A stretch of 62,287 nt of DNA, counting the filler, from Nemertoderma westbladi (Eukaryota; Animalia; Xenacoelomorpha), in NCBI GenBank assembly GCA_032718475.1. It is 3 parts of 3 records of this genome, joined end to end, with 100 filler letters (N's around TTAATTAATTAA, not from the genome) between each part and the next. Parts side by side here need not be neighbours in the genome. Positions count along the whole stretch, not along the records: positions 1 to 24,015 come from JAUCBJ010006082.1; 2 more parts are not named here. One strand, given 5' to 3'. Both the position numbers and the translations under genes were made by a program. Below, in pieces: positions 1-32,030 of the stretch (position 1 is its first letter; the number at the start of each line of letters is the position of its first letter). A model generated the notes under the pieces. It did not search any database. It saw only the letters and a list, made by a program, of their open reading frames with translations, and was not told the DNA's origin.

Positions 1-2338
1 TGTCAATACTGGATGCTCCTCTACCAGTGTTAGATAACCTAACCCAGGAGACACATTTGGTTCAGGGTGTAACAAATGGACCCCTACAGTCGGCAGCAGG
101 GCTGTAGGCCATGGATAGGCGGAAGGTAATCAACCAACGGCTAGACATGCTGACAAGGTCGACGGCGACCTACTGCGAAGACGCTTGTAGGAGTTGCGAC
201 CACAAGCGGTTTACCCTCGCAACTGAAAGATATGAGCAAGAGAACCCTCCAGGAGAAATACCGGCTCTGTCGTCGCCCGGGTCAACAAGGACCGCGTCCC
301 TCAGTGGTACACCAGGCTGGGGTCGATAAATCGGCTACTGGAACAGAAGACAGAGAAGAAAGAAGAACCAACCAGCTGAAATATAAAAAGACACTAAAGA
401 TTGCTACAATGAACGCACGCACGCTGAAAGCACATAACAAACAGGGTGACATGGTCGCTCTAGCAATGGAATATAACATCGATATCATCTGCATCCAAGA
501 ACATCGGATTTGTCATGAAGACACTGCCATGAAGTACAATGACATTGGAAATGAATGGACGTTAGTAACAAGCTCAGCGGTAAGAAACTCGGCCAATGCA
601 TCAATTGGAGGAGTAGGAATTCTGCTAAGTCCATTTACACTTAAGACCCTAAACAAAACAACATCGAATCTATAAATTCCAGGGTTATGATAGCAACATT
701 TGAAGGGAATCCCAAGACAACAGTAATATGTTGCTACAGTCCAAACAATGCCTCGGAGCCTTTATGAAGATCTGACTGGTGGACTTATAAAGGACAGCCC
801 GAAACACAATGTTAAAGTCATTGCTGGTGACCTTAATGCTCAAATTGGCCCAGAAGACATCAAGGGTTACACCTATAACACCAGTTCTAACAGAAATGGG
901 TACTTACTTTTAGACCCAATGGAAGAATGTGAATTGATACCAACAAACACCACATTCGAAAAGAGTAAGGGGAAGCTATGGACCTTTCAATACCCTAATG
1001 GAACCAAAGCACAACTGGATTACATCATTATAAACAAAAAGTGGAGAAACAGCGGGTTATCGTTCATATGCGTACCGGTGGTGTTACAGTGGTGGTGTTT
1101 TCTAACCAAAACAATAAACTAATCTCCATTACTTAATTAACGGAAAGGAGCATGTTACAGTGGTGGGCTTTTCTAACCATAACAATAAACAATATCTCAA
1201 TAACATAGGGTATTTCATACTTATAGTCTTATTTTTGCAATACAAAAATACCAACGGTACGGATATGAACTATAACTCAACTGCGAAGCATACAGCTCGT
1301 TCAACCTAATTTGTTCGGACCACAGAATTGTGACTGCAGAGATCAGACTCAGTTTGAGAGCCAGCAAATCTAGGACAAGCAAGAAAATCAACTTTGACTG
1401 GGAGAAACTCAGAACTGACAATGCAGTAAAGGATGCTTACACAGTAGAAGATCAAAACCGCTTTGAAACACTTCAGTCAATGGATGAAGACCAGTCCACC
1501 GATTCAATATACCAGAATATAATAAAAGCCCACAAGGAATCAGCTAAGAGGCATATCCCCCAGAAACCCAAACGAAAACAATGTGCCATGGCAAAACTCT
1601 GAGGTTACTTGTAAGAGAGAAGATCTTAAGATAGCCTACAAAGTAATAACTGAACAACCAACAACCGAAAACATTAACAAGGTTGATAATGCTAAGGATG
1701 ATCTTAAATTGGCCTACAACATCAGCCAGAAAAAGTACATACAGGATACAATTGAAGCAATTACAACTGCTCACATACAGAAACAATCAAGACTTACCTG
1801 GCAAACTGTGAATGAGGTATCTGGTCGGAAAAGTTGCGCAAAGGGGCGCCTCAAAGCCGATAGCCCCGAAGAACGTGTGGGGAAGTGGAAAAATCACTTC
1901 AGCAACTTGCTTGGGCAGCCACCAAACATCGAGGTCAGCCCTACAAGGAAAATATAAGACAAGACACTACCTATAGAAACAGGGGACTTCACACCTGCCG
2001 AACTCCAAAGAAGCATTAAAAGCATGTCCAATAATAAAGCGAGTGGATTAGATGAAATCTCCGCGGAGGTATGGAAAACAGGAGTGCTAAACAGACCATT
2101 ATTGAATGTTTGCAACCGGATGTTAAAAGGGGAAAAGCCACCACCAATTTGGACTAAAGATCAACTAAAGCTTCTCCCCAAGAAAGGAGACCTCGGTATA
2201 CTGGCCATAACACATATAGATCAACTTGAAAGGGATACTGAACTTGGGAGAAACGAAATTGCGACAACTATGGAGAATCAGGAAGCCTGGAAGGATCTCA
2301 TTCCCACTGTCCGAGTTCGCTCGACAGTAGTAGTAGTA
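1..2338 (+). mobile_element. Degenerate RTE/RTEX-group non-LTR retrotransposon (APE endonuclease plus linker; RT core internally deleted), lying in intron 1 of the ZRANB1-like gene
   Basis: APE motifs across frameshifted ORFs (IATMNARTL, ICIQEHR, GGVGILLS, IAGDLNA, QLDYII, SDHRIV). RT N-terminus GLDEI..PKKGDLG jumps at ~2200 straight to the C-terminal end. (AGT)n tail at ~2326-2338. Confidence 0.9.
1054..1278. mobile_element. MITE inserted in the LINE endonuclease
   Basis: 28-bp imperfect TIRs (gggttatcgttcatatgcgtaccggtgg / ccaacggtacggatatgaactataactc, 4 mismatches) interrupt the KWRNS..NCEAY motif. Internal ~38-bp duplication. No clear TSD. Confidence 0.75.
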
Positions 2339-3156
2339 CCCAAGCCTTTGCTTTCCTAACTTCTATGTCCTTTTTGCTACTCCCTATCCATGATCCAAGG
2401 TACTGGAAGTCGTCGACCGTACTTAGTTGATTATTATCCATGGTTGTCAAGTTTCCGGCAACATTAAAGGTCATGAATTCGGTCTTGGTAGCATTTAGAT
2501 GCAATCCAACCTCCTTAGCAGCCCTCTCCACTGCGGGGAGATTCTTTGACTTAATTCCTTCAATCAGTCTCCGTAGTGCAAGAATCTTTTTTTTGAGCTA
2601 TTGTTGATCTATTTGGTCGAAATCCGTTTTGGCTCTTACGCAGTAGTTTCTCTATGTGACTGTGTGAGGCCTAATCCTATATAGAATCATTTTATTGTAT
2701 ATATATTTGGGATTTCATCTAATCCACTCGCTTTATTATTGGACATGCTTTTAATGCTTCTTTGGAGTTCGGCAGGCAGCAGGTGTGAAGTCCCCTGTTT
2801 CTATAGGTAGTGTCTTGTCATATATTTTCCTTGTAGGGCTGACCTCGATGTTTGGTGGCTGCCCAAGCAAGTTGCTGAAGTGATTTTTCCACTTCCCAAC
2901 ACGTTCTTCAGGACTACAGACTCTCGGCTTTGAAGTGCCCCTTTGCACAACTTTTCCAACCAGATACCTCATTTACAGTTTGCCAGGTAAGTCTTGATTG
3001 TTGCTGTATGTAGTAAGCTGTTGTAATTGTTTCAATTTTATCCTGTATGTACTTTTCCTGGCTGATGTTGTAGGCCAATTTAAGATCGTCCTTAGCTCTC
3101 TCAGCCTTCAGACCTTGTTAATGTTTTCGGTTGTTGGTTGTTCGGTTTCAACTTTG
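2336..3156 (-). mobile_element. Inverted, internally deleted fragment of the same RTE-group LINE
   Basis: Reverse complement matches ~1640-2060 (SPEERVGKWKNHFSNLLGQPP). Also carries RT pieces (YNKMIL..RIR, QNGFRPNRST, VDDFQYLGSWI, KAKAW). Confidence 0.88.
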
Positions 3157-3400: not shown

Positions 3401-3635
3401 TATTATATTCGCAGATTTGAAGTTACCTCTTAGTCCTACTCTGCTACTGTCAGACTGTAGACTGTCCTACCCGACCCTTAACTCAGTAACTGTATTTTGT
3501 TTATTACAGTATTTATTATCTGACATACTGATTAGGGCCTACTGGCCAAGGCCTATCAGCTATTATTACTATTAGCTGATCAGACTATAAGCTGATAAAC
3601 CTACTGCCTACCCGCAGACCCGCCTACACCCTGAC

Positions 3636-5191
3636 TAGGGTTCAACAGAAGGCACTTTATGGGGCCGAACCGAACCAGGGCCAACTTCGGGCCGAATCGA
3701 ACCGAATCCGAACCGAAGTTCAGAAAGTTAGCAAGTTATGGTCATAAATTCGTATTTACGTCACTATCAGACTATACTGGCTGCCTGGCAGTGGCAGACT
3801 GGTACCTATATGGTCTGAGGACTTAGCGAGAAAGCTATGATTAATTAAAAAAATAAATACTACAAAATAAAATGGCAATATTTACATTACTGTACATTAC
3901 TAACCTAAACTACTGTATGCATGCACTTTACTGTATGCACCACATTTTCACCCGTAGTAATAGTAAGCCGTTCAGTAGTGACATCAAATTTAGAAAACCT
4001 CACTAAAAGTACAGGTAGTCTTTGTAATACTATTTATATGAGGTAGTTGGTATATTTGGTATTATGTATCAAAGTTATGATTAATTAAAAAATAGGGTAC
4101 TACAAAGTAAAATGGCAATATTTAGCCTAACCTAAACTAGTGTATAATTAAGCTAATTTTGAAACTACCCAAGTAACCTGGAAACAATTAAAAAAATAAT
4201 GCCATTTAAATGGAAGTTCAGTCCAAAATTAAGGGTGTAAACGTCAAGCAGACAGTGGTGCAGACACCTGGCAGCCTGGTGCGGTCAGTGGTGCAGACAC
4301 TGGTGCAGACAGTGGTGCAGCGTGCAGACAGTGGTGCAGACACTGGTGCAAACAGTGGTGCAGACAGTGGTGCAGACACCTGGTGCGGACAGTGGTGCAG
4401 ACACCTGGTGCGGACAGTGGTGCAGACAGTGGTGCAGACACTGGTGGAGACAGTGGTGCAGACATTGGTGCAGACAGTGGTGCAGACACTGGTGCAGACA
4501 GTCTTGCAGACACTGGTGCAGACAGTGGTGCAGACACTGGTCCAGACAGTGGTGCAGACACCTGGTGAAAATACTGAAATACCAGAGTACCACAAAACAC
4601 AATACCACCACGCACTATTATATTATATTTTATCATAGACTTCATTATCTACAAATATGCGAGTAATTACTGAAAGGTTCTACATGAAGTAGGGAGGACG
4701 TATGTAGTACAAGTCGAGGTGCGTGCGGGTGAATGTGCCCTGATTACAAATAATTAGGCCTATAAGAGGTGTGTACGAAAATAATTAAGTGCAGACTGCA
4801 CCAGTCTGCAAAAGGTGCCTGCACCACTGTCTGCTCCACTGCCTGCATCAGTGTCTGCACCACTGTCTGCACCAGTGTCTGCACCACTGTCTGCACCACT
4901 GTCTGCACCAGGTGTCTGCACCACTGTCTGCATCACTGTCTGCACCACTGTCTGCTCTGCACCAGTGTCTGCTTAACGTTTACACTCCAAAATTAATTAG
5001 TACAACGATGGACAGATTGATTAGTCTTACTGTCTTCTGGTCTTAGCTCAATCAGTCAATGTAATACTTGGAATATTTAGCAAAGTTTGCTCCGGGCTTC
5101 TGTCAGTCTGTAGTATCAATTGCAGAAGCCGAACCGAACCGAAATTGCCAAACTTCGGCCCGAACCGAACCGAAGCTTCTGTTGAGCCCTA
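3636..5191. mobile_element. Non-autonomous hAT element, copy 1
   Basis: TIRs tagggttcaacagaag / cttctgttgagcccta, subterminal ccgaa repeats, perfect 8-bp TSD accctgac (3628-3635, 5192-5199). Confidence 0.9.
4233..4987. mobile_element. MULE-like foldback element nested in hAT copy 1; arms made of a 12-bp minisatellite (gacagtggtgca)n
   Basis: Termini gggtgtaaacg / cgtttacactc; 9-bp TSD caaaattaa (4224-4232, 4988-4996); the repeat arms are in opposite orientation. Confidence 0.82.
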
Positions 5192-5438
5192 ACCCTGACA
5201 CCTACTCTACAGACCTCACGACCTAGTGCGTAGTGCAGTACACCCAGGCTGCCAGGTTGGAATTTATGTAGAGTTTGCTCAACATGCTGACATGAGTGAC
5301 ATGTGTGGCGCGCATTACGGATCCTGGCGCAGAGCAACAGGGTCGTGGATCCTGGTGCGCATATGGACATATGTATGTATGTCATTGTCATGTAACAGTA
5401 GCAGTGCGCTGGCAACATATCCACTCTACTTTAAGTTA

Positions 5439-9638: not shown

Positions 9639-10374
9639 AAAATATTTTTGGTGGAATTTCTAAAATTCCATTGAATGTGTTGATCAAAATTTTTGATCGA
9701 AATTTGAGCAAAATCCATCCCTACACACTATTGCAATGCAACTTTAGTGCCTGCAAGGTGTACTCCAGAGATGAGATAAAGCCTCGAGAATAGGTTAGTG
9801 AAAAAGGTTATACTTTTTGCCCAAGTTATAAATGATTCTGGTTCCTCATAAGGTCAAATTAAAAGGATGTATGTATGTGTATAGTATAAACAAACAGTCA
9901 CTTAGATTTCTAAAACATTTCAGATGTCTTGATAAGAAAGAATAGGTGTTGTATGGAACATGCAGACATGGCAGCATGGGCACATGGGCGGGGCCGGGGC
10001 ATGGCCTTTGCTTCATAATTTTATATATATATGGCCAGGTCATGATTGCATTGGATGTCTGGCTGGGATATTAAAATAGTCTGCGAGGATGTTGCACATT
10101 GTTGTAATGGAGATCAGGTTTAGATCTTTACATATAAGTTTAAAGCACATTATCAAATTGAACTTTATAGGTCTGTAGGTAGTGGTTCCAACCTTCTCCA
10201 GTCGTATAGAATAAGCTAGGGTTCAACAGAAGGCACTTTATGGTGCCGAACCGAACCGAACCGAAGCAGGGCCAACTTCGGGCCGAACCGAACCGAATCC
10301 GAACCGAAGTTCAGAAAGTTAGCAAGTTATGGTCATAAATTCGTCTTTACATCACTATACTGGCTGACTGGCAG

Positions 10375-10844
10375 CGGTCCTACGAATTACCCCAAAATAC
10401 CCCAAAACACCCCAAAAGACCCCAAAATAGTATAAAACTACCCCAAAATACCCCAAAATAGTTTAGAATTACCCCAAAATACCCCAAAATAGTTTAGAAT
10501 TACCCCAAAATACTTTTTTTTCAGCCTTTGTTTTGGAAATTTAATTTACCCCAAAATATGGCAAAATGACGAATTACCCCAAAATAATGACGAATTACCC
10601 CAAAATAATTAAAAATTTTTTCTTCACTCTCGTTTATTGTTTTGGTTAAAAAAACTTGCCACTGTAACCTGCTCCTTTCCCTCGCTGTTAAAAAACATGG
10701 TTAGCTTATTTTGGGGTATTTTGGGGTAATTTTTTAGCCTTTTTGGGGTATTTTGGGGTAATATTTGACTATTTTGGGGTATTTTGGAGTATTTTGGGGT
10801 ATTTTGGGGTGTTTTGGGGTATTTTGGGGTAATTCGTAGGACCC
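10375..10844. mobile_element. MITE (ggtcctacgaattacccc termini) nested in hAT copy 2 only
   Basis: TIR with 10-bp accccaaaat repeat arms; TSD actggcag on both sides; hAT copy 1 shows the empty site at ~3785. Confidence 0.88.
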
Positions 10845-11297
10845 ACTGGCAGTGGCAGACTGGTACCTATTTGGTCTGCGGACTTAGCAAGAAAGCTATG
10901 ATTAATTAAAATAAGAAGTACTACAAAATAAAATGACAATATTTACATTACTGTACAGCATTACTAACCTAAACTGCTGTATACTTACTGCTACTGTACC
11001 ACATTTTCATCCGTAGTAAGCCGTACAGTAGTGACATCAAATTTAGAGAACCTCACTAAAAGTACAGGTAGTACTATTTATATGACAGTATGAGGTAGTA
11101 GGTATATTTCTGTATTTGGTATTATGTATCAAAGTTATGATTAATTAAAAAATAGGTACTACAAAGTAAAATGGCAATAGGCCTATTTAGCCTAACCTAA
11201 ACTACTGTATAATTAAGCTAATTTTGAAACTACCCAAGTAAACTGAAAACAATTAAAAAAATAATGCCATTTAAATGGAAGTTCAGTCCAAAATTAA

Positions 11298-12351
11298 GGG
11301 TGTAAACGTTAAGCAGACAGTGGTGCAGTGCAGGCAGTGGTGCAGACACCTGGTGCGGACAGTGGTGCAGACAGTGGTGCAGCGTGCAGACAGTGGTGCA
11401 GGCACTGGTGCAGACACTGGTGGAGACAGTGGTGGAGACAGTGGTGCAGACACAGGTGCAGACAGCAGACAGTGGTGCAGACAGTCAGACAGTGGTGCAG
11501 CGTGCAGACAGTGGTTCAGACACTGGTGCAGACACTGGTGCAGACAGTGGTGCAGACACTGGTGCAGACAGTGGTGCAGACACTGGTGCAGACAGTGGTG
11601 CAGACACTGGTGCAGACAGTGGTGCGGCAGACACTGGTGCAGACAGTGGTACAGACAGTGATGCAGACACTGGTGCAGACTGGTGCAGAAAGTGGTGCAG
11701 ACACTGGTGCAGACAGTGGTGCAGACACTGGTGCAGACAGTGATGCAGACAGTGGTGCAGACTGGTGCAGAAAGTGGTGCAGACACTGGTGCAGACAGTC
11801 AGACAGTGGTGCAGACAGTGCAGACTAACTACAGTAAGGTCTCAGGAATTGTTAGTCCGCGAGTATTCTTAGCCTGCGAGTATTCTTGGCCCTTGGGTAT
11901 TCTTAGCCTCCAAAACAATAACGTTTATTGTTTTGGTTCCCCCAATACTCCTCTGAAACCTGCCACCTGCTCCTTTACTAAACTGCTCCTTTACTAACCT
12001 GCTCGCCCCTTTCAGCCTTTACTGTCTGCACCAGTGTCTGCACCAGTATCTGCACCACTGTCTGCACCACTGGCTGCACCCTGCACCACTGTCTGCACCA
12101 CTGGCTGCACCACTGTCTACACCACCCAGCCACTGTCTGCACCACTGTCTGCACCAGGTGTCTGCACCACTGTCTGCAACACTGTCTGCACCACTGTCTG
12201 TATCAAAGCCTGCACAACTGTCTGCACCAGTGGCTGCACGACTGCACCACTGTCTGCACTAGGTGTCTGCACCACTGTCTGCATCACTGTCTGCACCACT
12301 GTCTGTACCTACTGTCTGCTCTGCACCAGTGTCTGCTTAACGTTTGCACCC
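11298..12351. mobile_element. MULE-like 12-bp-minisatellite foldback element nested in hAT copy 2
   Basis: Same termini and same TSD caaaattaa (11289-11297, 12352-12360) as 4233-4987. Confidence 0.82.
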
Positions 12352-12655
12352 CAAAATTAATTAGTACAACGATGGACAGATTGATTAGTCTTACTGTCTT
12401 CTGGTCTTAGCTCAATCAGTCAATGTAATACTTGGAATAATTAGCAAAGTTTGCTCCTGGCTTCTGCAGTATCAATTGCAGAAGCCGAACCGAACCGAAA
12501 TTGCCAAACTTCGGCCCGAACCGAACCGAAGCCGAAGCTTCTGTTGAGCCCTAAGAATAACTAACTAAAGAATCAAGTCCACTATTGTATAAACCATGTC
12601 AACCTTTGCGGCTTTAAGGTAAACACTAGAGACTTACAACCTTTAACTACAAAAA

Positions 12656-15600
12656 GTTTTTTGTTTGTTTTGTTTTGTGTTCCTTTATGGCCTTAGGGTC
12701 TGGAAGGTATTTTGGGCTTAATGTCCTGATTCTATATTTTTTTTTTGTAGTTAAAGGTTGTAAGTCTCTAGTGTTTACCTTAAAGTTGATATATACACCC
12801 AACCCCCTGTTAGTCAGTATGTCGGTACATTCAATTATCACATATGAATATAGAGCAGAACTCCGGCATCACTGCATGTTGTTAAATCTTATATAATTTT
12901 TGTACTGTGTGTTTGCTCTAGCAAACTACCAGTTTTCCATTGGTAACATGTTTACTTACCGTAGGCCTATAGGGTTCCAATGTTCTGAGGTCTGAAGTCT
13001 GTTTGGGCTAAGTGGTAACTGAGTTGATGGTGCGATTAATTTAGGTCAATGGTGCAATATAGTTAGGCTTGGCTAATTCCCTGTCCAGCTGACGAGGTGT
13101 CGAGGATTAGCGCGTACTGGTCCTAGACGCCGAAACGCAACCATATTTTTAACAAATTAATTATTTTTGTCTTAGTCCTAACTCTTTCACGGCGACAAAA
13201 ATGTCATATATTTTCTTATAGAATATAGGCTTAGCTTTTGTGCAGTTTAATACCGGTATCATTTAGTGTATGGCGGTTAGGTTTTAGGGTTAGGGTTGCG
13301 ATACATACTTGTATGTGGAGCATGTTATAATATATTTTGTTTGTGTTTTTTGTTTGTTTTGTTTTGTGTTCCTTGATGGCCTTAGGGTCTGGAGTTTTTT
13401 GTTTGTTTTGTTTTGTGTTCCTTTATGGCCTTAGGGTCTGGAAGGTATTTTGGGCTTAATGTCCTGATTCTATATTTTTTTTTTTTGTAGTTAAAGGTTG
13501 TAAGTCTCTAGTGTTTACCTTAAAGTTGATATATACACCCAACCCCCTGTTAGTCAGTATGTCGGTACATTCAATTATCACATATGAATATAGAGCAGAA
13601 CTCCGGCATCACTGCATGTTGTTAAATCTTATATAATTTTTGTACTGTGTGTTTGCTCTAGCAAACTACCAGTTTTCCATTGGTAACATGTTTACTTACC
13701 GTAGGCCTATAGGGTTCCAATGTTCTGAGGTCTGAAGTCTGTTTGGGCTAAGTGGTAACTGAGTTGATGGTGCGATTAATTTAGGTCAATGGTGCAATAT
13801 AGTTAGGCTTGGCTAATTCCCTGTCCAGCTGACGAGGTGTCGAGGATTAGCGCGTACTGGTCCTAGACGCCGAAACGCAACCATATTTTTAACAAATTAA
13901 TTATTTTTGTCTTAGTCCTAACTCTTTCACGGCGACAAAAATGTCATATATTTTCTTATAGAATATAGGCTTAGCTTTTGTGCAGTTTAATACCGGTATC
14001 ATTTAGTGTATGGCGGTTAGGTTTTAGGGTTAGGGTTGCGATACATACTTGTATGTGGAGCATGTTATAATATATTTTGTTTGTGTTTTTTGTTTGTTTT
14101 GTTTTGTGTTCCTTGATGGCCTTAGGGTCTGGAGTTTTTTGTTTGTTTTGTTTTGTGTTCCTTTATGGCCTTAGGGTCTGGAAGGTATTTTGGGCTTAAT
14201 GTCCTGATTCTATATTTTTTTTTTTGTAGTTAAAGGTTGTAAGTCTCTAGTGTTTACCTTAAAGTTGATATATACACCCAACCCCCTGTTAGTCAGTATG
14301 TCGGTACATTCAATTATCACATATGAATATAGAGCAGAACTCCGGCATCACTGCATGTTGTTAAATCTTATATAATTTTTGTACTGTGTGTTTGCTCTAG
14401 CAAACTACCAGTTTTCCATTGGTAACATGTTTACTTACCGTAGGCCTATAGGGTTCCAATGTTCTGAGGTCTGAAGTCTGTTTGGGCTAAGTGGTAACTG
14501 AGTTGATGGTGCGATTAATTTAGGTCAATGGTGCAATATAGTTAGGCTTGGCTAATTCCCTGTCCAGCTGACGAGGTGTCGAGGATTAGCGCGTACTGGT
14601 CCTAGACGCCGAAACGCAACCATATTTTTAACAAATTAATTATTTTTGTCTTAGTCCTAACTCTTTCACGGCGACAAAAATGTCATATATTTTCTTATAG
14701 AATATAGGCTTAGCTTTTGTGCAGTTTAATACCGGTATCATTTAGTGTATGGCGGTTAGGTTTTAGGGTTAGGGTTGCGATACATACTTGTATGTGGAGC
14801 ATGTTATAATATATTTTGTTTGTGTTTTTTGTTTGTTTTGTTTTGTGTTCCTTGATGGCCTTAGGGTCTGGAGTTTTTTGTTTGTTTTGTTTTGTGTTCC
14901 TTTATGGCCTTAGGGTCTGGAAGGTATTTTGGGCTTAATGTCCTGATTCTATATTTTTTTTTTTTGTAGTTAAAGGTTGTAAGTCTCTAGTGTTTACCTT
15001 AAAGTTGATATATACACCCAACCCCCTGTTAGTCAGTATGTCGGTACATTCAATTATCACATATGAATATAGAGCAGAACTCCGGCATCACTGCATGTTG
15101 TTAAATCTTATATAATTTTTGTACTGTGTGTTTGCTCTAGCAAGCTACCAGTTTTCCATTGGTAACATGTTTACTTACCGTAGGCCTATAGGGTTCCAAT
15201 GTTCTGAGGTCTGAAGTCTGTTTGGGCTAAGTGGTAACTGAGTTGATGGTGCGATTAATTTAGGTCAATGGTGCAATATAGTTAGGCTTGGCTAATTCCC
15301 TGTCCAGCTGACGAGGTGTCGAGGATTAGCGCGTACTGGTCCTAGACGCCGAAACGCAACCATATTTTTAACAAATTAATTATTTTTGTCTTAGTCCTAA
15401 CTCTTTCACGGCGACAAAAATGTCATATATTTTCTTATAGAATATAGGCTTAGCTTTTGTGCAGTTTAATACCGGTATCATTTAGTGTATGGCGGTTAGG
15501 TTTTAGGGTTAGGGTTGCGATACATACTTGTATGTGGAGCATGTTATAATATATTTTGTTTGTGTTTTTTGTTTGTTTTGTTTTGTGTTCCTTGATGGCC

Positions 15601-18600
15601 TTAGGGTCTGGAGTTTTTTGTTTGTTTTGTTTTGTGTTCCTTTATGGCCTTAGGGTCTGGAAGGTATTTTGGGCTTAATGTCCTGATTCTATATTTTTTT
15701 TTTTTGTAGTTAAAGGTTGTAAGTCTCTAGTGTTTACCTTAAAGTTGATATATACACCCAACCCCCTGTTAGTCAGTATGTCGGTACATTCAATTATCAC
15801 ATATGAATATAGAGCAGAACTCCGGCATCACTGCATGTTGTTAAATCTTATATAATTTTTGTACTGTGTGTTTGCTCTAGCAAACTACCAGTTTTCCATT
15901 GGTAACATGTTTACTTACCGTAGGCCTATAGGGTTCCAATGTTCTGAGGTCTGAAGTCTGTTTGGGCTAAGTGGTAACTGAGTTGATGGTGCGATTAATT
16001 TAGGTCAATGGTGCAATATAGTTAGGCTTGGCTAATTCCCTGTCCAGCTGACGAGGTGTCGAGGATTAGCGCGTACTGGTCCTAGACGCCGAAACGCAAC
16101 CATATTTTTAACAAATTAATTATTTTTGTCTTAGTCCTAACTCTTTCACGGCGACAAAAATGTCATATATTTTCTTATAGAATATAGGCTTAGCTTTTGT
16201 GCAGTTTAATACCGGTATCATTTAGTGTATGGCGGTTAGGTTTTAGGGTTAGGGTTGCGATACATACTTGTATGTGGAGCATGTTATAATATATTTTGTT
16301 TGTGTTTTTTGTTTGTTTTGTTTTGTGTTCCTTGATGGCCTTAGGGTCTGGAGTTTTTTGTTTGTTTTGTTTTGTGTTCCTTTATGGCCTTAGGGTCTGG
16401 AAGGTATTTTGGGCTTAATGTCCTGATTCTATATTTTTTTTTTGTAGTTAAAGGTTGTAAGTCTCTAGTGTTTACCTTAAAGTTGATATATACACCCAAC
16501 CCCCTGTTAGTCAGTATGTCGGTACATTCAATTATCACATATGAATATAGAGCAGAACTCCGGCATCACTGCATGTTGTTAAATCTTATATAATTTTTGT
16601 ACTGTGTGTTTGCTCTAGCAAACTACCAGTTTTCCATTGGTAACATGTTTACTTACCGTAGGCCTATAGGGTTCCAATGTTCTGAGGTCTGAAGTCTGTT
16701 TGGGCTAAGTGGTAACTGAGTTGATGGTGCGATTAATTTAGGTCAATGGTGCAATATAGTTAGGCTTGGCTAATTCCCTGTCCAGCTGACGAGGTGTCGA
16801 GGATTAGCGCGTACTGGTCCTAGACGCCGAAACGCAACCATATTTTTAACAAATTAATTATTTTTGTCTTAGTCCTAACTCTTTCACGGCGACAAAAATG
16901 TCATATATTTTCTTATAGAATATAGGCTTAGCTTTTGTGCAGTTTAATACCGGTATCATTTAGTGTATGGCGGTTAGGTTTTAGGGTTAGGGTTGCGATA
17001 CATACTTGTATGTGGAGCATGTTATAATATATTTTGTTTGTGTTTTTTGTTTGTTTTGTTTTGTGTTCCTTGATGGCCTTAGGGTCTGGAGTTTTTTGTT
17101 TGTTTTGTTTTGTGTTCCTTTATGGCCTTAGGGTCTGGAAGGTATTTTGGGCTTAATGTCCTGATTCTATATTTTTTTTTTTGTAGTTAAAGGTTGTAAG
17201 TCTCTAGTGTTTACCTTAAAGTTGATATATACACCCAACCCCCTGTTAGTCAGTATGTCGGTACATTCAATTATCACATATGAATATAGAGCAGAACTCC
17301 GGCATCACTGCATGTTGTTAAATCTTATATAATTTTTGTACTGTGTGTTTGCTCTAGCAAACTACCAGTTTTCCATTGGTAACATGTTTACTTACCGTAG
17401 GCCTATAGGGTTCCAATGTTCTGAGGTCTGAAGTCTGTTTGGGCTAAGTGGTAACTGAGTTGATGGTGCGATTAATTTAGGTCAATGGTGCAATATAGTT
17501 AGGCTTGGCTAATTCCCTGTCCAGCTGACGAGGTGTCGAGGATTAGCGCGTACTGGTCCTAGACGCCGAAACGCAACCATATTTTTAACAAATTAATTAT
17601 TTTTGTCTTAGTCCTAACTCTTTCACGGCGACAAAAATGTCATATATTTTCTTATAGAATATAGGCTTAGCTTTTGTGCAGTTTAATACCGGTATCATTT
17701 AGTGTATGGCGGTTAGGTTTTAGGGTTAGGGTTGCGATACATACTTGTATGTGGAGCATGTTATAATATATTTTGTTTGTGTTTTTTGTTTGTTTTGTTT
17801 TGTGTTCCTTGATGGCCTTAGGGTCTGGAGTTTTTTGTTTGTTTTGTTTTGTGTTCCTTTATGGCCTTAGGGTCTGGAAGGTATTTTGGGCTTAATGTCC
17901 TGATTCTATATTTTTTTTTTTGTAGTTAAAGGTTGTAAGTCTCTAGTGTTTACCTTAAAGTTGATATATACACCCAACCCCCTGTTAGTCAGTATGTCGG
18001 TACATTCAATTATCACATATGAATATAGAGCAGAACTCCGGCATCACTGCATGTTGTTAAATCTTATATAATTTTTGTACTGTGTGTTTGCTCTAGCAAA
18101 CTACCAGTTTTCCATTGGTAACATGTTTACTTACCGTAGGCCTATAGGGTTCCAATGTTCTGAGGTCTGAAGTCTGTTTGGGCTAAGTGGTAACTGAGTT
18201 GATGGTGCGATTAATTTAGGTCAATGGTGCAATATAGTTAGGCTTGGCTAATTCCCTGTCCAGCTGACGAGGTGTCGAGGATTAGCGCGTACTGGTCCTA
18301 GACGCCGAAACGCAACCATATTTTTAACAAATTAATTATTTTTGTCTTAGTCCTAACTCTTTCACGGCGACAAAAATGTCATATATTTTCTTATAGAATA
18401 TAGGCTTAGCTTTTGTGCAGTTTAATACCGGTATCATTTAGTGTATGGCGGTTAGGTTTTAGGGTTAGGGTTGCGATACATACTTGTATGTGGAGCATGT
18501 TATAATATATTTTGTTTGTGTTTTTTGTTTGTTTTGTTTTGTGTTCCTTGATGGCCTTAGGGTCTGGAGTTTTTTGTTTGTTTTGTTTTGTGTTCCTTTA

Positions 18601-21600
18601 TGGCCTTAGGGTCTGGAAGGTATTTTGGGCTTAATGTCCTGATTCTATATTTTTTTTTTTTTGTAGTTAAAGGTTGTAAGTCTCTAGTGTTTACCTTAAA
18701 GTTGATATATACACCCAACCCCCTGTTAGTCAGTATGTCGGTACATTCAATTATCACATATGAATATAGAGCAGAACTCCGGCATCACTGCATGTTGTTA
18801 AATCTTATATAATTTTTGTACTGTGTGTTTGCTCTAGCAAACTACCAGTTTTCCATTGGTAACATGTTTACTTACCGTAGGCCTATAGGGTTCCAATGTT
18901 CTGAGGTCTGAAGTCTGTTTGGGCTAAGTGGTAACTGAGTTGATGGTGCGATTAATTTAGGTCAATGGTGCAATATAGTTAGGCTTGGCTAATTCCCTGT
19001 CCAGCTGACGAGGTGTCGAGGATTAGCGCGTACTGGTCCTAGACGCCGAAACGCAACCATATTTTTAACAAATTAATTATTTTTGTCTTAGTCCTAACTC
19101 TTTCACGGCGACAAAAATGTCATATATTTTCTTATAGAATATAGGCTTAGCTTTTGTGCAGTTTAATACCGGTATCATTTAGTGTATGGCGGTTAGGTTT
19201 TAGGGTTAGGGTTGCGATACATACTTGTATGTGGAGCATGTTATAATATATTTTGTTTGTGTTTTTTGTTTGTTTTGTTTTGTGTTCCTTGATGGCCTTA
19301 GGGTCTGGAGTTTTTTGTTTGTTTTGTTTTGTGTTCCTTTATGGCCTTAGGGTCTGGAAGGTATTTTGGGCTTAATGTCCTGATTCTATATTTTTTTTTT
19401 TTTTGTAGTTAAAGGTTGTAAGTCTCTAGTGTTTACCTTAAAGTTGATATATACACCCAACCCCCTGTTAGTCAGTATGTCGGTACATTCAATTATCACA
19501 TATGAATATAGAGCAGAACTCCGGCATCACTGCATGTTGTTAAATCTTATATAATTTTTGTACTGTGTGTTTGCTCTAGCAAACTACCAGTTTTCCATTG
19601 GTAACATGTTTACTTACCGTAGGCCTATAGGGTTCCAATGTTCTGAGGTCTGAAGTCTGTTTGGGCTAAGTGGTAACTGAGTTGATGGTGCGATTAATTT
19701 AGGTCAATGGTGCAATATAGTTAGGCTTGGCTAATTCCCTGTCCAGCTGACGAGGTGTCGAGGATTAGCGCGTACTGGTCCTAGACGCCGAAACGCAACC
19801 ATATTTTTAACAAATTAATTATTTTTGTCTTAGTCCTAACTCTTTCACGGCGACAAAAATGTCATATATTTTCTTATAGAATATAGGCTTAGCTTTTGTG
19901 CAGTTTAATACCGGTATCATTTAGTGTATGGCGGTTAGGTTTTAGGGTTAGGGTTGCGATACATACTTGTATGTGGAGCATGTTATAATATATTTTGTTT
20001 GTGTTTTTTGTTTGTTTTGTTTTGTGTTCCTTGATGGCCTTAGGGTCTGGAGTTTTTTGTTTGTTTTGTTTTGTGTTCCTTTATGGCCTTAGGGTCTGGA
20101 AGGTATTTTGGGCTTAATGTCCTGATTCTATATTTTTTTTTTTGTAGTTAAAGGTTGTAAGTCTCTAGTGTTTACCTTAAAGTTGATATATACACCCAAC
20201 CCCCTGTTAGTCAGTATGTCGGTACATTCAATTATCACATATGAATATAGAGCAGAACTCCGGCATCACTGCATGTTGTTAAATCTTATATAATTTTTGT
20301 ACTGTGTGTTTGCTCTAGCAAACTACCAGTTTTCCATTGGTAACATGTTTACTTACCGTAGGCCTATAGGGTTCCAATGTTCTGAGGTCTGAAGTCTGTT
20401 TGGGCTAAGTGGTAACTGAGTTGATGGTGCGATTAATTTAGGTCAATGGTGCAATATAGTTAGGCTTGGCTAATTCCCTGTCCAGCTGACGAGGTGTCGA
20501 GGATTAGCGCGTACTGGTCCTAGACGCCGAAACGCAACCATATTTTTAACAAATTAATTATTTTTGTCTTAGTCCTAACTCTTTCACGGCGACAAAAATG
20601 TCATATATTTTCTTATAGAATATAGGCTTAGCTTTTGTGCAGTTTAATACCGGTATCATTTAGTGTATGGCGGTTAGGTTTTAGGGTTAGGGTTGCGATA
20701 CATACTTGTATGTGGAGCATGTTATAATATATTTTGTTTGTGTTTTTTGTTTGTTTTGTTTTGTGTTCCTTGATGGCCTTAGGGTCTGGAGTTTTTTGTT
20801 TGTTTTGTTTTGTGTTCCTTTATGGCCTTAGGGTCTGGAAGGTATTTTGGGCTTAATGTCCTGATTCTATATTTTTTTTTTTGTAGTTAAAGGTTGTAAG
20901 TCTCTAGTGTTTACCTTAAAGTTGATATATACACCCAACCCCCTGTTAGTCAGTATGTCGGTACATTCAATTATCACATATGAATATAGAGCAGAACTCC
21001 GGCATCACTGCATGTTGTTAAATCTTATATAATTTTTGTACTGTGTGTTTGCTCTAGCAAACTACCAGTTTTCCATTGGTAACATGTTTACTTACCGTAG
21101 GCCTATAGGGTTCCAATGTTCTGAGGTCTGAAGTCTGTTTGGGCTAAGTGGTAACTGAGTTGATGGTGCGATTAATTTAGGTCAATGGTGCAATATAGTT
21201 AGGCTTGGCTAATTCCCTGTCCAGCTGACGAGGTGTCGAGGATTAGCGCGTACTGGTCCTAGACGCCGAAACGCAACCATATTTTTAACAAATTAATTAT
21301 TTTTGTCTTAGTCCTAACTCTTTCACGGCGACAAAAATGTCATATATTTTCTTATAGAATATAGGCTTAGCTTTTGTGCAGTTTAATACCGGTATCATTT
21401 AGTGTATGGCGGTTAGGTTTTAGGGTTAGGGTTGCGATACATACTTGTATGTGGAGCATGTTATAATATATTTTGTTTGTGTTTTTTGTTTGTTTTGTTT
21501 TGTGTTCCTTGATGGCCTTAGGGTCTGGAGTTTTTTGTTTGTTTTGTTTTGTGTTCCTTTATGGCCTTAGGGTCTGGAAGGTATTTTGGGCTTAATGTCC

Positions 21601-24015
21601 TGATTCTATATTTTTTTTTTGTAGTTAAAGGTTGTAAGTCTCTAGTGTTTACCTTAAAGTTGATATATACACCCAACCCCCTGTTAGTCAGTATGTCGGT
21701 ACATTCAATTATCACATATGAATATAGAGCAGAACTCCGGCATCACTGCATGTTGTTAAATCTTATATAATTTTTGTACTGTGTGTTTGCTCTAGCAAAC
21801 TACCAGTTTTCCATTGGTAACATGTTTACTTACCGTAGGCCTATAGGGTTCCAATGTTCTGAGGTCTGAAGTCTGTTTGGGCTAAGTGGTAACTGAGTTG
21901 ATGGTGCGATTAATTTAGGTCAATGGTGCAATATAGTTAGGCTTGGCTAATTCCCTGTCCAGCTGACGAGGTGTCGAGGATTAGCGCGTACTGGTCCTAG
22001 ACGCCGAAACGCAACCATATTTTTAACAAATTAATTATTTTTGTCTTAGTCCTAACTCTTTCACGGCGACAAAAATGTCATATATTTTCTTATAGAATAT
22101 AGGCTTAGCTTTTGTGCAGTTTAATACCGGTATCATTTAGTGTATGGCGGTTAGGTTTTAGGGTTAGGGTTGCGATACATACTTGTATGTGGAGCATGTT
22201 ATAATATATTTTGTTTGTGTTTTTTGTTTGTTTTGTTTTGTGTTCCTTGATGGCCTTAGGGTCTGGAGTTTTTTGTTTGTTTTGTTTTGTGTTCCTTTAT
22301 GGCCTTAGGGTCTGGAAGGTATTTTGGGCTTAATGTCCTGATTCTATATTTTTTTTTTTGTAGTTAAAGGTTGTAAGTCTCTAGTGTTTACCTTAAAGTT
22401 GATATATACACCCAACCCCCTGTTAGTCAGTATGTCGGTACATTCAATTATCACATATGAATATAGAGCAGAACTCCGGCATCACTGCATGTTGTTAAAT
22501 CTTATATAATTTTTGTACTGTGTGTTTGCTCTAGCAAACTACCAGTTTTCCATTGGTAACATGTTTACTTACCGTAGGCCTATAGGGTTCCAATGTTCTG
22601 AGGTCTGAAGTCTGTTTGGGCTAAGTGGTAACTGAGTTGATGGTGCGATTAATTTAGGTCAATGGTGCAATATAGTTAGGCTTGGCTAATTCCCTGTCCA
22701 GCTGACGAGGTGTCGAGGATTAGCGCGTACTGGTCCTAGACGCCGAAACGCAACCATATTTTTAACAAATTAATTATTTTTGTCTTAGTCCTAACTCTTT
22801 CACGGCGACAAAAATGTCATATATTTTCTTATAGAATATAGGCTTAGCTTTTGTGCAGTTTAATACCGGTATCATTTAGTGTATGGCGGTTAGGTTTTAG
22901 GGTTAGGGTTGCGATACATACTTGTATGTGGAGCATGTTATAATATATTTTGTTTGTGTTTTTTGTTTGTTTTGTTTTGTGTTCCTTGATGGCCTTAGGG
23001 TCTGGAGTTTTTTGTTTGTTTTGTTTTGTGTTCCTTTATGGCCTTAGGGTCTGGAAGGTATTTTGGGCTTAATGTCCTGATTCTATATTTTTTTTTTTTT
23101 TGTAGTTAAAGGTTGTAAGTCTCTAGTGTTTACCTTAAAGTTGATATATACACCCAACCCCCTGTTAGTCAGTATGTCGGTACATTCAATTATCACATAT
23201 GAATATAGAGCAGAACTCCGGCATCACTGCATGTTGTTAAATCTTATATAATTTTTGTACTGTGTGTTTGCTCTAGCAAACTACCAGTTTTCCATTGGTA
23301 ACATGTTTACTTACCGTAGGCCTATAGGGTTCCAATGTTCTGAGGTCTGAAGTCTGTTTGGGCTAAGTGGTAACTGAGTTGATGGTGCGATTAATTTAGG
23401 TCAATGGTGCAATATAGTTAGGCTTGGCTAATTCCCTGTCCAGCTGACGAGGTGTCGAGGATTAGCGCGTACTGGTCCTAGACGCCGAAACGCAACCATA
23501 TTTTTAACAAATTAATTATTTTTGTCTTAGTCCTAACTCTTTCACGGCGACAAAAATGTCATATATTTTCTTATAGAATATAGGCTTAGCTTTTGTGCAG
23601 TTTAATACCGGTATCATTTAGTGTATGGCGGTTAGGTTTTAGGGTTAGGGTTGCGATACATACTTGTATGTGGAGCATGTTATAATATATTTTGTTTGTG
23701 TTTTTTGTTTGTTTTGTTTTGTGTTCCTTGATGGCCTTAGGGTCTGGAGTTTTTTGTTTGTTTTGTTTTGTGTTCCTTTATGGCCTTAGGGTCTGGAAGG
23801 TATTTTGGGCTTAATGTCCTGATTCTATATTTTTTTTTTGTAGTTAAAGGTTGTAAGTCTCTAGTGTTTACCTTAAAGTTGATATATACACCCAACCCCC
23901 TGTTAGTCAGTATGTCGGTACATTCAATTATCACATATGAATATAGAGCAGAACTCCGGCATCACTGCATGTTGTTAAATCTTATATAATTTTTGTACTG
24001 TGTGTTTGCTCTAGC
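12656..24015 (+). repeat. Tandem array of a ~740-bp unit (15 full units plus a partial one, truncated by the gap); hammerhead-containing satellite / retrozyme-like
   Basis: Unit starts at 12656, 13394, 14134, 14873, 15613, 16353, 17091, 17830, 18569, 19310, 20052, 20791, 21530, 22268, 23007, 23749. Lengths of 738-742 reflect one poly-T tract (10-14 T). One substitution noticed (15144). Confidence 0.97.
13085..13138 (+). ncRNA. Hammerhead ribozyme core (first of 15 copies, one per full repeat unit)
   Basis: CUGACGA (13089-95), stem II GGUGUC/GACGCC with canonical G10.1-C11.1, GAAA (13132-35). Arms CCAG and ACGC are complementary to GCGU-A-CUGG at 13112-13120. Confidence 0.7.
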
Positions 24016-24115
24016 NNNNNNNNNNNNNNNNNNNNNNNNNNNNNNNNNNNNNNNNNNNNTTAATTAATTAANNNNNNNNNNNNNNNNNNNNNNNNNNNNN
24101 NNNNNNNNNNNNNNN
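24016..24115. other. Artificial contig spacer (100 bp of N with central TTAATTAATTAA)
   Basis: N-run containing a stop-in-all-frames linker; an identical construct occurs at 52912-53011. Confidence 0.97.
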
Positions 24116-24600: not shown

Positions 24601-24760
24601 AAAGTATGATAATAATATGATAATATACTTATAGTATGTTATAGTATAATGTGGACAGATGATGAACCACAACACCAATAATTAAAATACTAGTATTAGT
24701 AGTAATATACAAAGCAAAGTTCAATAAAACAATCAGGGATCACGGTTTACATTTCACCAC

Positions 24761-27700
24761 CTAGCTAACAGGACATCTAAAAGATAATGCAGCCACCAAA
24801 GAGAATAAAAAAAGGCAACCCCAACAAACTGAGAAGCGAACAAGTTCTCTGCATTCCAAAATAATCATTGAGAAATCCACCAAAAACGGGACCTATAATG
24901 TTTCCAATAGACATTGATATACGAAACATTTGTTGCAGAAGAGATCTGGTGTCAACATTGTCTGGATAGCCACAAACCTTCACAGCCAGTTGCGTTTGTG
25001 TTTCCAATGCAGGGGTCATGTATAATACTGTACCAAATCCGAGGAGTGCAAATCCAGTAATAGAAATTGAGAAATCATGAGGTAAACCGAGAAGTTCTGT
25101 AGGACCTATTAGTTGCATTGCTAATGCTACTATCATTACTCCAAATACAATAGGAAAGATAGTTTTCAATTTCTTCATCATTAAACTCATTATTATACCT
25201 ATGGAGGCATTAATACTAGGAGATATCATATATATCCGACCAATATTGTATTGGTTCACATTGTAGGTGTGATGAATGTAGGCAGCATAGTTCGTAACTA
25301 TAAATTGTGAGAGCATAACCCAATATGTGTGCAAAATAAACATAAGAGTTATTGCTGGATTCTTCAGAACCCTAAGTAAGATAAGTTGGTCTGACCTCAC
25401 CTGTCTTGAATGTAAGCTGGTGACTCTTTCCAACAGTAAAAGAGTATAATGAGAAATATCAAACCCGATATTATAAATGGGAATTCAAAACCCAAAGCAG
25501 CAAAAACTGTAGAACCAAATACTGGTGCAACCATGAATCCTATATTGGTGCTAACAAGAGTTAGACTAGCTAATACTGTTCTTTGTGCTGGCCACAATTC
25601 CATCAAGAGACTGAATGAATACATAAAACTGATATTGAGTCCAAAAGCTTCGATTATACGCAGTGAAAAACGACAAATATATATAATCCACTGTTACTAT
25701 TAGGGATATATTCTACAAACCCAAATGCTAACTGGGAAACAGCTCCAATGATTCCAAATAGACCCAAAGAGATACGAGTTCCCCAATTGTTGATAGAATG
25801 AGGGAAAGTGATATATATTATAAGTCTCATCATTGAAAAAGTTGAAGGTAATGCACCAATCAGAGTGTTTGACCAACCTCGTTCTTCAACCCCAAGCACT
25901 GAACTGGAAAGCTATGGACTCATAGTGGACCCAGTGGTCACAAGTCCCAGATAGACCATATTCTGTTTCGTAGGAAATACAGGAGCTCTATACAAGACTG
26001 TAATGCATTTACACTTCGACCCTTCTCCAGTGATCACCGCCTTATTGTGGCCAAGGTAAGACTTAGTCTGCGTGATAGCAGAATAATGAAATCTGCCTTG
26101 CCCCGACATGACTGGTCCTCTCTGTTGCAACAGCCAAGTGTGAGATCCAGCTTCACACTACAGCTGAGCAACAGGTATGAGGCTCTTGCCTCTGAGGCGG
26201 CAGATCACTGTGAGGGCTATACTGCCTTTACAGAAGCAGTTAAGTTAGCAGCTGCAGAAACAGTTCCTGTGTACCCTCGAAACAGGAAAGGGGCCCCCTG
26301 GACTGACAACAAAATTCAGAAGTGCCGAAATGACCTTCATAAGGCGCAGAAAGAGTCCCGACTCAAACAGACTATAGCGGCCAAGAATGCAGTTAAGGCT
26401 GCATCTAGGTCCCTGAACAGGCAGTACTCTGTTAATCTACAGGAGCTAATAAACCAACAGGTTGATGCCATCAATGATGCTGACAACAGCAGGCAATCAT
26501 CCCAGGCATGGAAATCTATCAACTTGCTTACTGGGCGGAAAAGCCAACCAACCACCAAGGTTAAGGCTGAATCACCAGCAGATCGCCTCAATGGTTGGAA
26601 AGCCCACTTTGAAAAGCTCCTCAATAATGACAGGGTATTGCCTGATAACTTTATAGAAGTAAAAGTGTCTGAGTCTGTACTCCCAGATATTCCCATTGGC
26701 GATATCTCCTTTGCAGAAGTGAAGGCTGCTGCAAAGAGCATTAAGACCAATCGTGCCAGTGGAGTAGATGGTATTCCCCCTGAGGTCTTTAAAATACCTG
26801 AGTGTTTAAAGCTCATCTATCCCATCATAGTAGACATGTACCGAACAACAAGTCCCACAAGAAATGAAAACAAATAAGTTGGTGCCAGTTCCCAAGAAGG
26901 GCAACCTAACACTCTATGGTTCTTTTCGTGGAATCGCCTTGATCTCGATTGCTGCAAAGCTATACAATAGGATTCTATTAAATCGCATCAGGGATCCCAT
27001 TGAGAGACTGCTCCGTGGAAATCAGAATGGGTTCCGTAAAGGTTGTGGGACCATGGAGCCCATTTTGGCACTTAGAAGGATAATTCAAGAATTAACCAAA
27101 AAGAAAGACAGGCATCTGGCTGTTATCTTTGTTGACTTCTTCAAGGCCTTTGATTCAGTCTCTCGCTCACGTATGTTCAGCATACTTTCATTATATGGGA
27201 TTCCTGATGAAATCATTGCAGCAATAAGATCAGTATACGATGGTTCGACAACATTTGTGTCTACTGTTGATGGTGACACAGAACCATTTGAAGTGTTATG
27301 GGGCGTCCTCCAAGGAGACACACTTGCACCATTCTTGTTCATTATTGTGGTTGACTATGTTCTACGCATGTCCTTAGATCATCATAATGATGATAGGGTG
27401 ATGATAACTCCACCTACTGGCTCCAGAAGTCGAGGAAATCCTGCCAAGTACCTAACTGATCTAGACTTTGCTGATGACTTAGGAGTACTCTCAGAATCAC
27501 TAGAGGGAGCCCAACGGCTCCTCAGCTCATTAGAACATGCTGCTTCTAGTGTTGGTCTTTTTATTAACTCCAGAAAGACCAAAATTTTGACAGTTAACTT
27601 TGAAAGTCCTCAGCAAGTCTCTGATCGGTTGAGCATAAGCTCAAAGGATGGAATGCTTGAGCATGTGGACGACTTCTGTTACCTGGGATCATGGATCCGG

Positions 27701-28471
27701 AAGTCAGGTGAGGACCATCGAATACATAAGGGAAAGGCATGGGCAGCCTTGAATAGGCTTTCCAGGATTTGGAAGTCACCGAGAATTAATCGGAAACTTA
27801 AGGTCCGATTATTTAGAGCAACAGTAGTTCCAGTACTCCTCTACGGGAGTCCATGCTGGGCTCTAACTGCTGAGGACACCAAATCTCTGGATGGCACATT
27901 CACAAGAATGCTACGCCGGGTTCATTGTGTCAAGTACAATGCACACATCTCCAACCAGACACTATATAACATTGGAGGTGTCTCATTGGTTCCCCCAAGC
28001 TTAACACTAGAACGAAATCGCCTCCGCTTTGCAGGACATTGCTTTCGCCGTGAGGACCAGCCAGTGCATAATCTTCTACTTTGGCAGCCTCATGGAGTGA
28101 ATAAGCATGGTGGACAGCCCATGACTTTCTTGAGACGCATCTTAAAGGACACTGGCCTTGAAGATGCGGATGATCTAGCAAATGTCATGGGTGATAGGGA
28201 GTTGTGGCGGTGCAATTTTGTTGACAAGCCGGCACAGCATTCTTAAAAATGCAGCTGCAATGCAGAATGCCGATCCTAGTAGTAGTAGTAGTTCTTCAAC
28301 AACAATTGGGAAGAAAGTCTCTAATAGACTCTGACACCAACCTATTATCATTTGATATACAAGCAGCATGATCACTAACATATAAAGTCTCCCGACCTTT
28401 CGGAGTCCATTTTTACATGAACGCCTTATATTCATTGAACTTGACTTTATGGGGGCCTCTTCATCTGACAT
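24761..28471 (-). pseudogene. SLC18B1-like MFS transporter pseudogene (paralog of 32406-33713), disrupted by a LINE and frameshifts
   Basis: ORF pieces 28471-28291 and 25890-24761 align to the intact paralog; frameshifts near 25670 and 25380-25400; LINE inserted at FFPIVVE|ERGW. Confidence 0.9.
25891..28290 (+). mobile_element. 5'-truncated RTE/RTEX-group LINE with near-intact RT
   Basis: End of APE (SQIDHIL, SDHRLIV); RT motifs QNGFR, FVDFFKAFDSV, GVLQGDTLAPFLF, LDFADD, FCYLGS; frameshift at ~26865; (TAG)n tail; 10-bp TSD gttcttcaac (25881-90, 28291-300). Confidence 0.95.
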
Positions 28472-31197: not shown

Positions 31198-31902
31198 TAG
31201 ATAGACCTGAAAATACTACCTGATTCCTTGAATGTCCGCAATATACCTCCTCATGGCCTCCCATTTGTCAATACCATCATCTGCTGCCACTGGGCTCAAC
31301 CCTACTGTACTTGGCCGTCTTTAACAACTTCCAATCACAACCGCAAATGAAAGGGTTGTGTATTAACCATGAACCATCACGGCCACAATGATTAAGTATA
31401 AACTCTAACTACTAATTTAGTTTATGTATTATTATTATTTTTATATTTCTATAGCGCCAAATTTACATGAAAACACCCTGTGGTGCTGAAACTTCTTTTC
31501 AACTCTTAAAGTTTCGATTTAAAAAGATCCAAGCTGGCACCCTATTCTTTCCGGTAATTCGTGATGAAAACATCACAGATAGCAGGGCAGTGCAATTCAA
31601 ACCAAACCTAAGCAGTGAAACTAAATCAACTTTGTGGGGCGAGTCAAAACTTCGAGCCATCAGCGAAATGTTATAATTATACTATGGCCGTTTTCTAAAA
31701 GTGTGTGTGTCAGTCTGTGTGTTGGAAGCCATAATTGTCTTCACTCGTGTTATTATTATTTGCAATTAAGGTAATATATCAATACAAACTAAATTTCATG
31801 TTGACGTCATATCTATCTTTTAGCCTATCTTTTACTTTCCTGCAATGGGCACAGGCGCGGTACTCTACTCCACAGTGTATTCTCCTGCAATAAAGCAATA
31901 AT

Positions 31903-32030
31903 TTTGCCGAAACGCAACCTTTTGCCGAAACGCAACTTTTTTGCCGAAACGCGACTTTTTTTGTCGAAACCCATCTTTTTTGTCAAAACGCAACTTTTTT
32001 TGCCGAAACGCGACTGTTTCCGAAACGCGA
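31903..32030. repeat. Short ~19-23-bp tandem repeat (ttttgccgaaacgc core)
   Basis: About 7 degenerate copies followed by poly-C. Confidence 0.7.

Follow-up and report, generated by a model that had tools for sequence, protein, structure and literature searches.

Eckert et al. (2023; PMC10085705) divided the hammerhead ribozyme into three blocks, designated C, G and S, and named the six orders in which these can follow one another. Type CSG is known from five sequences (two of them unique) from soil metagenome DNA, and these authors found no CSG RNA in the genome of a known organism. When transcribed as RNAs of 77-78 nt with a single motif, CSG-1 and CSG-2 cut where predicted, with rates of 0.004 and 0.026 per min, and the CSG RNAs carry a fourth helix that links stem I to stem II through their free ends. 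Eckert et al. called CSG, which rests on two similar soil sequences, the weaker case. A 2026 paper (PMC13725137) still cites Eckert et al. for alternative permutations, a literature search on 'type-CSG' returned Eckert et al. only, and no published case of a CSG hammerhead in a eukaryote or in a retrozyme was found, most subscription journals lying outside the search.

The closest systems in terms of genomic setting are the animal non-LTR retrozymes and the Penelope-like elements (PLEs). Cervera and de la Pena (2020; PMC7229834) reported that retrozyme monomers are ligated by RtcB and that circles are formed, most of which are predicted to leave the ribozyme unblocked. A PLE origin has been argued for animal retrozymes by Li et al. 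(2026; bioRxiv 10.64898/2026.07.22.740005), who searched with type I descriptors only. PLE insertions often bear an inverted 5'-truncated copy (PMC8557442), dimeric hammerheads are frequently found in the repeats of animals (PMC4209133), and Craig et al. (PMC8557442) listed eight Naiads under 'HHR_half_core', with core halves 35-50 nt apart.

The window, a 62,287-nt stretch of DNA from Nemertoderma westbladi (GCA_032718475.1), contains a tandem array which carries one hammerhead motif in each unit. Judged from its sequence, the motif is a type-CSG non-circularly permuted, pseudoknotted hammerhead, and we favour, with a probability of about 0.62, the reading that each unit holds a CSG motif likely to fold and cut within that single unit, the array being likely a retrozyme-type non-autonomous retroelement. 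The features on which the following analysis relies are:

12612-12655, - strand: 44-bp inverted piece (equal to unit positions 398-441), abutting the truncated 5' end of the array
12655-24015, + strand: non-coding head-to-tail array with a GC content of about 37%, comprising some 15.4 units of 738-742 bp
13072-13079, + strand: 5' strand of the fourth helix, which joins stems I and II
13085-13101, + strand: block C, with the stem I 5' strand (13085-88), CUGACGA (13089-95) and the stem II 5' strand (13096-101)
13089, + strand: start of the first CTGACGA core, from the sequence
13104-13111, + strand: 3' strand of the fourth helix, also in the 5' arm (13103-13110) of the rival hairpin
13112-13120, + strand: block S, with a stem III strand, GUA with the predicted cut after 13116, and the stem I 3' strand
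13121-13125, + strand: S-to-G linker, forming with 13117-20 the 3' arm of the rival hairpin
13126-13138, + strand: block G, with the stem II 3' strand (13126-31), the GAA core and a stem III strand (13135-38)
13117-13856, + strand: predicted monomer RNA of 740 nt between successive cuts
13812-23493, + strand: 14 further identical ribozyme copies, by sequence match
13829, 14568, 15308, 16048, 16786, 17525 and 18264, + strand: further core starts, by sequence match
19005, 19747, 20486, 21225, 21963, 22702 and 23444, + strand: further core starts, by sequence match

Core positions were assigned by established hammerhead numbering and all core letters are canonical, namely G2.1 (13088), C3-A9 (13089-95), G10.1 (13096), C11.1 (13131), G12-A14 (13132-34), A15.1 (13135), U16.1 (13115), A17 (13116) and C1.1 (13117); the invariant core nucleotides and an NUH triplet, GUA at 13114-16, are both present. 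Stems I and III comprise 4 bp each and stem II comprises 6 bp, one of them U.G, and no nucleotides are shared among them, while the S-to-G linker could lengthen stem I, U13121 contributing a U.U and C13122 a G-C pair. The core halves lie 36 nt apart in the repeat unit. A previous sequence-only reading of this DNA had described a perfect hammerhead core, present in 15 copies, with the cleavage strand placed inside stem II, and the sequence indeed reads in this way; its statement that the three helices all cross in a monomer is likewise borne out, the crossing stems having 4, 6 and 4 bp. What does not stand is the suggestion that the permutation is undescribed, as the block order from 5' to 3' is C, S, G, already known as type CSG (Eckert et al. 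2023; PMC10085705).

Comparison with CSG-1 and CSG-2 shows that all four helices recur in an identical order, and that the fourth measures 8 bp in both cases. By eye, the distance from G10.1 to U16.1 is 20 nt in the published CSG and here, and that from C1.1 to C11.1 amounts to 15 versus 16 nt between the repeat motif and published CSG. The link between the fourth helix and stem III has zero length here, and the published report describes zero links in SGC and similarly short ones in CSG. Stems I and III are, in contrast, shorter here (4/4 bp versus 6/5 in CSG-1/2; PMC10085705), and the helix sequences appear by eye to be unrelated to those of CSG-1/2.

With respect to the cleavage site, GCGU-A-CUGG is the only 4+4-bp site when 370 nt on each side of the core, amounting to one whole unit, are considered, and the next-best sites in this range reach 3+3 bp. 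This agrees with the earlier assignment of the predicted cut to GUA, after 13116. Among 200,000 shuffles of the 24-nt loop, 307 yield a 4+4 site, and 11 yield such a site together with a fourth helix of at least 8 bp. Conventional cleavage sites within 150 nt either side of the core do not exceed 3+3 bp, type I sites in the 150 nt downstream do not exceed 3+2 bp, and no cleavage triplet with a stem I nearby follows GAAA. These figures bear on the explanation that the core boxes are those of an old type I or III hammerhead, now decayed, and that the loop match is accidental. This would suit a motif with short 4-bp stems in a single family in which no covariation was seen, but the rarity of such loops among the shuffles, the lack of any better conventional site within 150 nt and the fact that the S block is unchanged in a diverged subfamily (see below) all speak against it, and we regard it as very improbable. 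Rfam returned no match at gathering score in the whole window, nor at E<=10 in 12900-13900. Elsewhere in the window, a microsatellite of 19-bp units containing GCCGAAACGCAAC (31902-32028) matches 13-14 nt around the ribozyme G block; no CUGANGA box is found beside it, and we have treated it as unrelated, the likeness being probably a coincidence or a captured fragment.

The fourth helix pairs 13072-13079 with 13104-13111 (8 bp including one U.G) and had been missed in the sequence-only reading. It connects stems I and II at their free ends and is compatible with the other three helices, all 22 pairs being intact. When the upstream 25 nt are shuffled, its pairing energy is matched in 77 of 5,000 cases, and none of 640 other 25-nt windows of the unit matches it, whereas a length of 8 or more bp, G.U allowed, arises in 2,377 of 20,000 shuffles. 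The helix is modestly supported by its own statistics, its length alone being weak evidence.

The active fold is overlapped by a rival hairpin of 14 bp (6+8), corresponding to the masking hairpin which had been noticed before, and this hairpin is indeed part of the nested minimum free energy fold. Using nested folding, a model that does not score pseudoknots, we predict that the fourth helix dominates in transcripts ending at 13111-13120, before the 3' arm of the rival is complete (P 0.85-0.99), and that the rival hairpin takes over once 13124 has been made (P 0.82-0.93), reaching 1.0 by 13131. In terms of summed stacking, before loop costs, the four active helices amount to about -38 kcal/mol versus -24 kcal/mol for stem II plus the rival stem. 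For the 740-nt linear RNA released by cleavage, nested folding predicts that the two ends pair (P>=0.86) and that a 6-nt 3' tail is left next to the 5' end. Folded as a circle, the whole unit does not stand out in stability against 25 shuffles (z -1.5). We rejected a kink-turn in the rival hairpin after inspection by eye, since the pairing past the tandem G.A does not suit one.

The dominance of the rival hairpin in the nested monomer fold raises the possibility that cleavage takes place between units, the core of one acting on an S block that belongs to a neighbouring unit or to another molecule while the monomer is locked in the hairpin. Stems I and III are short, strand exchange is possible between identical units, and the hammerheads of newt, axolotl and PLEs work better as dimers (PMC4209133); furthermore, a keyword search of the main text of the CSG paper (PMC10085705) found no dimer or RNA-concentration test. 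However, the S block of a neighbour would be buried in the same hairpin, and the known dimer hammerheads of newt and PLE type have a stem III of 1-2 bp with a small palindromic loop directly after GAAA (PMC4209133), which is absent here. The multimer dependence proposed in the sequence-only reading is in fact not needed, since the fourth helix and the linker lengths match those of CSG RNAs that cleave as short single-motif transcripts (PMC10085705). We consider inter-unit cleavage unlikely, and prefer folding and cutting of the CSG motif within a single unit.

The 15 hammerhead motifs all lie on the + strand, one per unit of approximately 740 bp, at a spacing of 738-742 nt. The 15 copies do not differ from one another in the 100 nt made up of the 40 nt that precede each core start and the 60 nt counted from it, and the 14 full units vary solely at one SNP column and in how long a single poly-T run is. 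The unit has little coding potential, the longest ATG ORF being 27 aa on the + strand and 33 aa on the - strand. At its 5' end the array overlaps the inverted piece by 1 nt, and its 3' end is lost, as it runs into the N gap at 24016. The two gaps of the window (24016-24115 and 52912-53011) each consist of two 44-N runs flanking a 12-base spacer. Each unit also contains a TTAGGG doublet on the sense strand (about 13284-13296, in the region 13254-13299), adjoining the point at which family joints run back (13284 to 12708), and, 3' of it, a 49-bp T-rich duplication. A link to telomere-targeting PLEs was dropped, because TTAGGG occurs on the sense strand and not in the reverse-complement orientation described (PMC8557442).

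The family was further investigated in sequencing runs. Four DNA runs of one organism share 0.58-0.75 of the words of the stretch, and 459, 931 and 69 contigs from three DNA runs match the unit when aligned at 80%. The repeat is a large, diverged tandem family, as the contigs span identity bands from 99+ to under 90% and exhibit back-running joints of 577 and 610 nt plus several opposite-strand joints, contig depth giving no copy number. Many diverged copies and loose ends in the three DNA runs point to dispersed insertions. Runs X7 and X8 (organisms C and D) yielded no matching contigs, which does not prove absence, and among the contig ends listed there is no pile-up at the predicted cut, contigs being unable to show RNA ends.

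Among the 40 listed of 127 difference rows, one falls inside 13072-13138. A narrow alignment of 13045-13165, omitting differences near the ends of the stretch, evidences only T13124A and G13129A at 1% or above, these representing 79% and 86% of the X2 depth, respectively. The former lies in the unpaired linker and deletes the last pair of the rival hairpin, and the latter converts the stem II U.G wobble to U-A. In the two main X6 contigs compared with the window, 2 of 67 ribozyme positions differ versus 64 of 469 flanking ones (Fisher p=0.006, assuming that both contigs are one subfamily); p is 0.15 for the single X6 contig that covers the ribozyme and 0.045 for the X2 count. The ribozyme is conserved in X6 although it holds 7 CpGs, neither of the two changes in this diverged subfamily breaks an active pair, and the S block is unchanged. 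The listed family differences include no compensatory double change in any helix, no disrupted pair, and one one-sided change, from U.G to U-A. The conservation is consistent with the fold as drawn from sequence, and it does not amount to covariation, as no pair is changed on both sides. The use of X6 as expression evidence or as an independent species was dropped, its RNA nature being only guessed, its depth being 3-8 and its letters being the majority letters of organism A.

The window copy itself carries minority letters at 13063, 13124 and 13129, each of which slightly favours competing folds. It could then be that the motif is a CSG hammerhead by descent which is slow or silent in this subfamily, and that the array has grown by satellite amplification at the DNA level; unequal crossing-over would also give the near-identity of the 14 units, and Li et al. 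(bioRxiv 10.64898/2026.07.22.740005) discuss local satellite amplification and report most tested elements as inactive. The core letters and all 22 pairs are, however, intact, the three majority variants alter the nested-fold balance little, the window and majority letters differ little in energy (-19.1 versus -18.4 kcal/mol for stem II plus hairpin), and the inverted 5' junction points to reverse transcription. We hold a silent ribozyme amplified as satellite DNA to be rather improbable.

We have also scanned sequence collections for homologues. A family-specific pattern gave 0 matches in viral contigs, and general CSG-spacing patterns gave 64 and at least 120 viral, 114 metagenome and 31 GTDB matches. 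As a measure of the core-spacing background, 4 of the 329 listed matches passed a requirement for stems of 3 or more bp; none has a fourth helix over 6 bp, and none approaches the 4/6/4 plus 8 bp architecture. The four weak passes (L003, L134, L270 and L279) were rejected as chance. One of them, in a viral contig (L003:31-113), can be drawn as a CSG with stems of 6/4/4 bp and a 5-bp fourth helix, and is probably a chance match. The metagenome scan did not recover the CSG sequences of Eckert et al. and is hence without a positive control.

Several other features are found in the window. A repeat with internal 12-bp minisatellite arrays occurs in inverted arrangement at 3635-5192 and 10216-12554, and 57 nt separate the end of the latter copy from the inverted piece that adjoins the ribozyme array. 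LINE-like elements lie at 25903-28246 (+) and 154-2359 (+), one appearing as Pfam RVT_1 over two frames and the other in several pieces. Two apparently intronless copies of an MFS transporter are located at 32406-33737 (-) and 24777-25484 (-), with 24757-25890 being 91% like 32402-33542, and an intronless ORF for a DHHC palmitoyltransferase at 58323-59468 (-) has ZDHHC9 as its best solved relative (E 1e-90). Along with the MFS and reverse-transcriptase ORFs, it points to a eukaryotic host, likely an animal. A 204-aa ORF at 60985-61599 (-) has no Pfam match; it presumably resembles a fragment of an invertebrate DNA-transposon protein. None of the 8 window ORFs scanned against Pfam was recognised as Penelope-like.

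Taken together, the above suggests how such an element might operate. In the nascent RNA, according to the nested-fold model, the fourth helix would form first and hold 13104-13111; stems I, II and III would then close, and the RNA would be cut in cis after A13116 in every unit. After cutting, the ends of the 740-nt monomer are predicted to pair via the rival hairpin and stem II, which would bring the 3' cyclic-phosphate tail and the 5'-OH together for joining by a host ligase of RtcB type, and in the closed circle the rival hairpin would keep the core blocked. By analogy with known elements, a Penelope-like reverse transcriptase may copy the circle into tandem cDNA and insert it, a mode of mobilisation suggested by the tandem form together with the inverted piece of 44 bp that borders the 5' truncation. 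On the other hand, 8 of 9 predicted retrozyme dimers were inactive in vitro (Li et al. 2026; bioRxiv 10.64898/2026.07.22.740005), which counts against cleavage here. The more elaborate proposal of an abundant animal retrozyme family built on a CSG hammerhead with a kinetic switch, in which the fourth helix permits the cut and the hairpin then clamps the ends and locks the circle, is tentative, and we would place it slightly short of even odds. As to its origin, one may speculate that a tandem type I array, C-G-S-C-G-S, lost G1, C2 and S2 and so became CSG; C and S taken from one unit and G from the next would suffice, because the pairing is equally good between copies that are identical.

The recurrence of these four helices and of their spacing in an unrelated sequence, intact across a diverged family, represents independent support for the CSG fold, and the repeat setting supplies this fold with a plausible job. 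The rival hairpin suggests how a circle avoids being cut again, a question which is open for most animal retrozymes (PMC7229834). Animal retrozymes are possibly undercounted, since Rfam misses the motif and type I descriptors would miss it too. If true, the kinetic-switch retrozyme would give CSG ribozymes their first eukaryotic host and their first known biological setting; it would mean that type-I-only searches overlook one class of circular-RNA elements in animals, and would suggest how a non-circular permutation can arise.

Compared with CSG-1/2, which have no known host or setting, the motif described here has a 14-bp rival hairpin and resides in a many-copy eukaryotic tandem repeat. The topology is already known, and what appears to be new is the setting, namely an animal tandem repeat which is non-coding, present in many copies and bordered by an inverted 5' junction. 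The retrozyme-like setting proposed at the outset is upheld: animal non-LTR retrozymes are non-coding head-to-tail repeats with a GC content below 50% and a hammerhead per unit (PMC7229834; bioRxiv 10.64898/2026.07.22.740005), as is the case here, and the unit of about 740 bp falls inside the 51-972-bp range of Li et al. (bioRxiv 10.64898/2026.07.22.740005), although above the typical 150-450 bp. Nevertheless, the published animal retrozymes carry type I hammerheads and the present one is of type CSG, so that on its sequence features the element is likely retrozyme-like, yet outside the published definition, which specifies type I. A hairpin across the cut site would here block the ribozyme, as in plant LTR retrozymes and viroids, and whereas retrozyme circles are described as highly self-paired, the whole-unit circular fold is not unusually stable. 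In respect to PLEs, the hammerheads of their pLTRs (PMC4209133; PMC8557442) share with those of the array the tandem copies, the long stem II and the short stem I, and their insertions display a 5' truncation with an adjoining inverted piece, which 12612-12655 resembles (PMC8557442); unlike in PLEs, the unit has neither an RT/endonuclease ORF nor a palindromic mini stem III. Three short core motif strings, a weak test, found no matching hammerhead in the supplement of Craig et al. (PMC8557442). The 36-nt gap between the core halves falls in the 35-50-nt range of the HHR_half_core Naiads (PMC8557442), and these eight elements may hide related permuted motifs.
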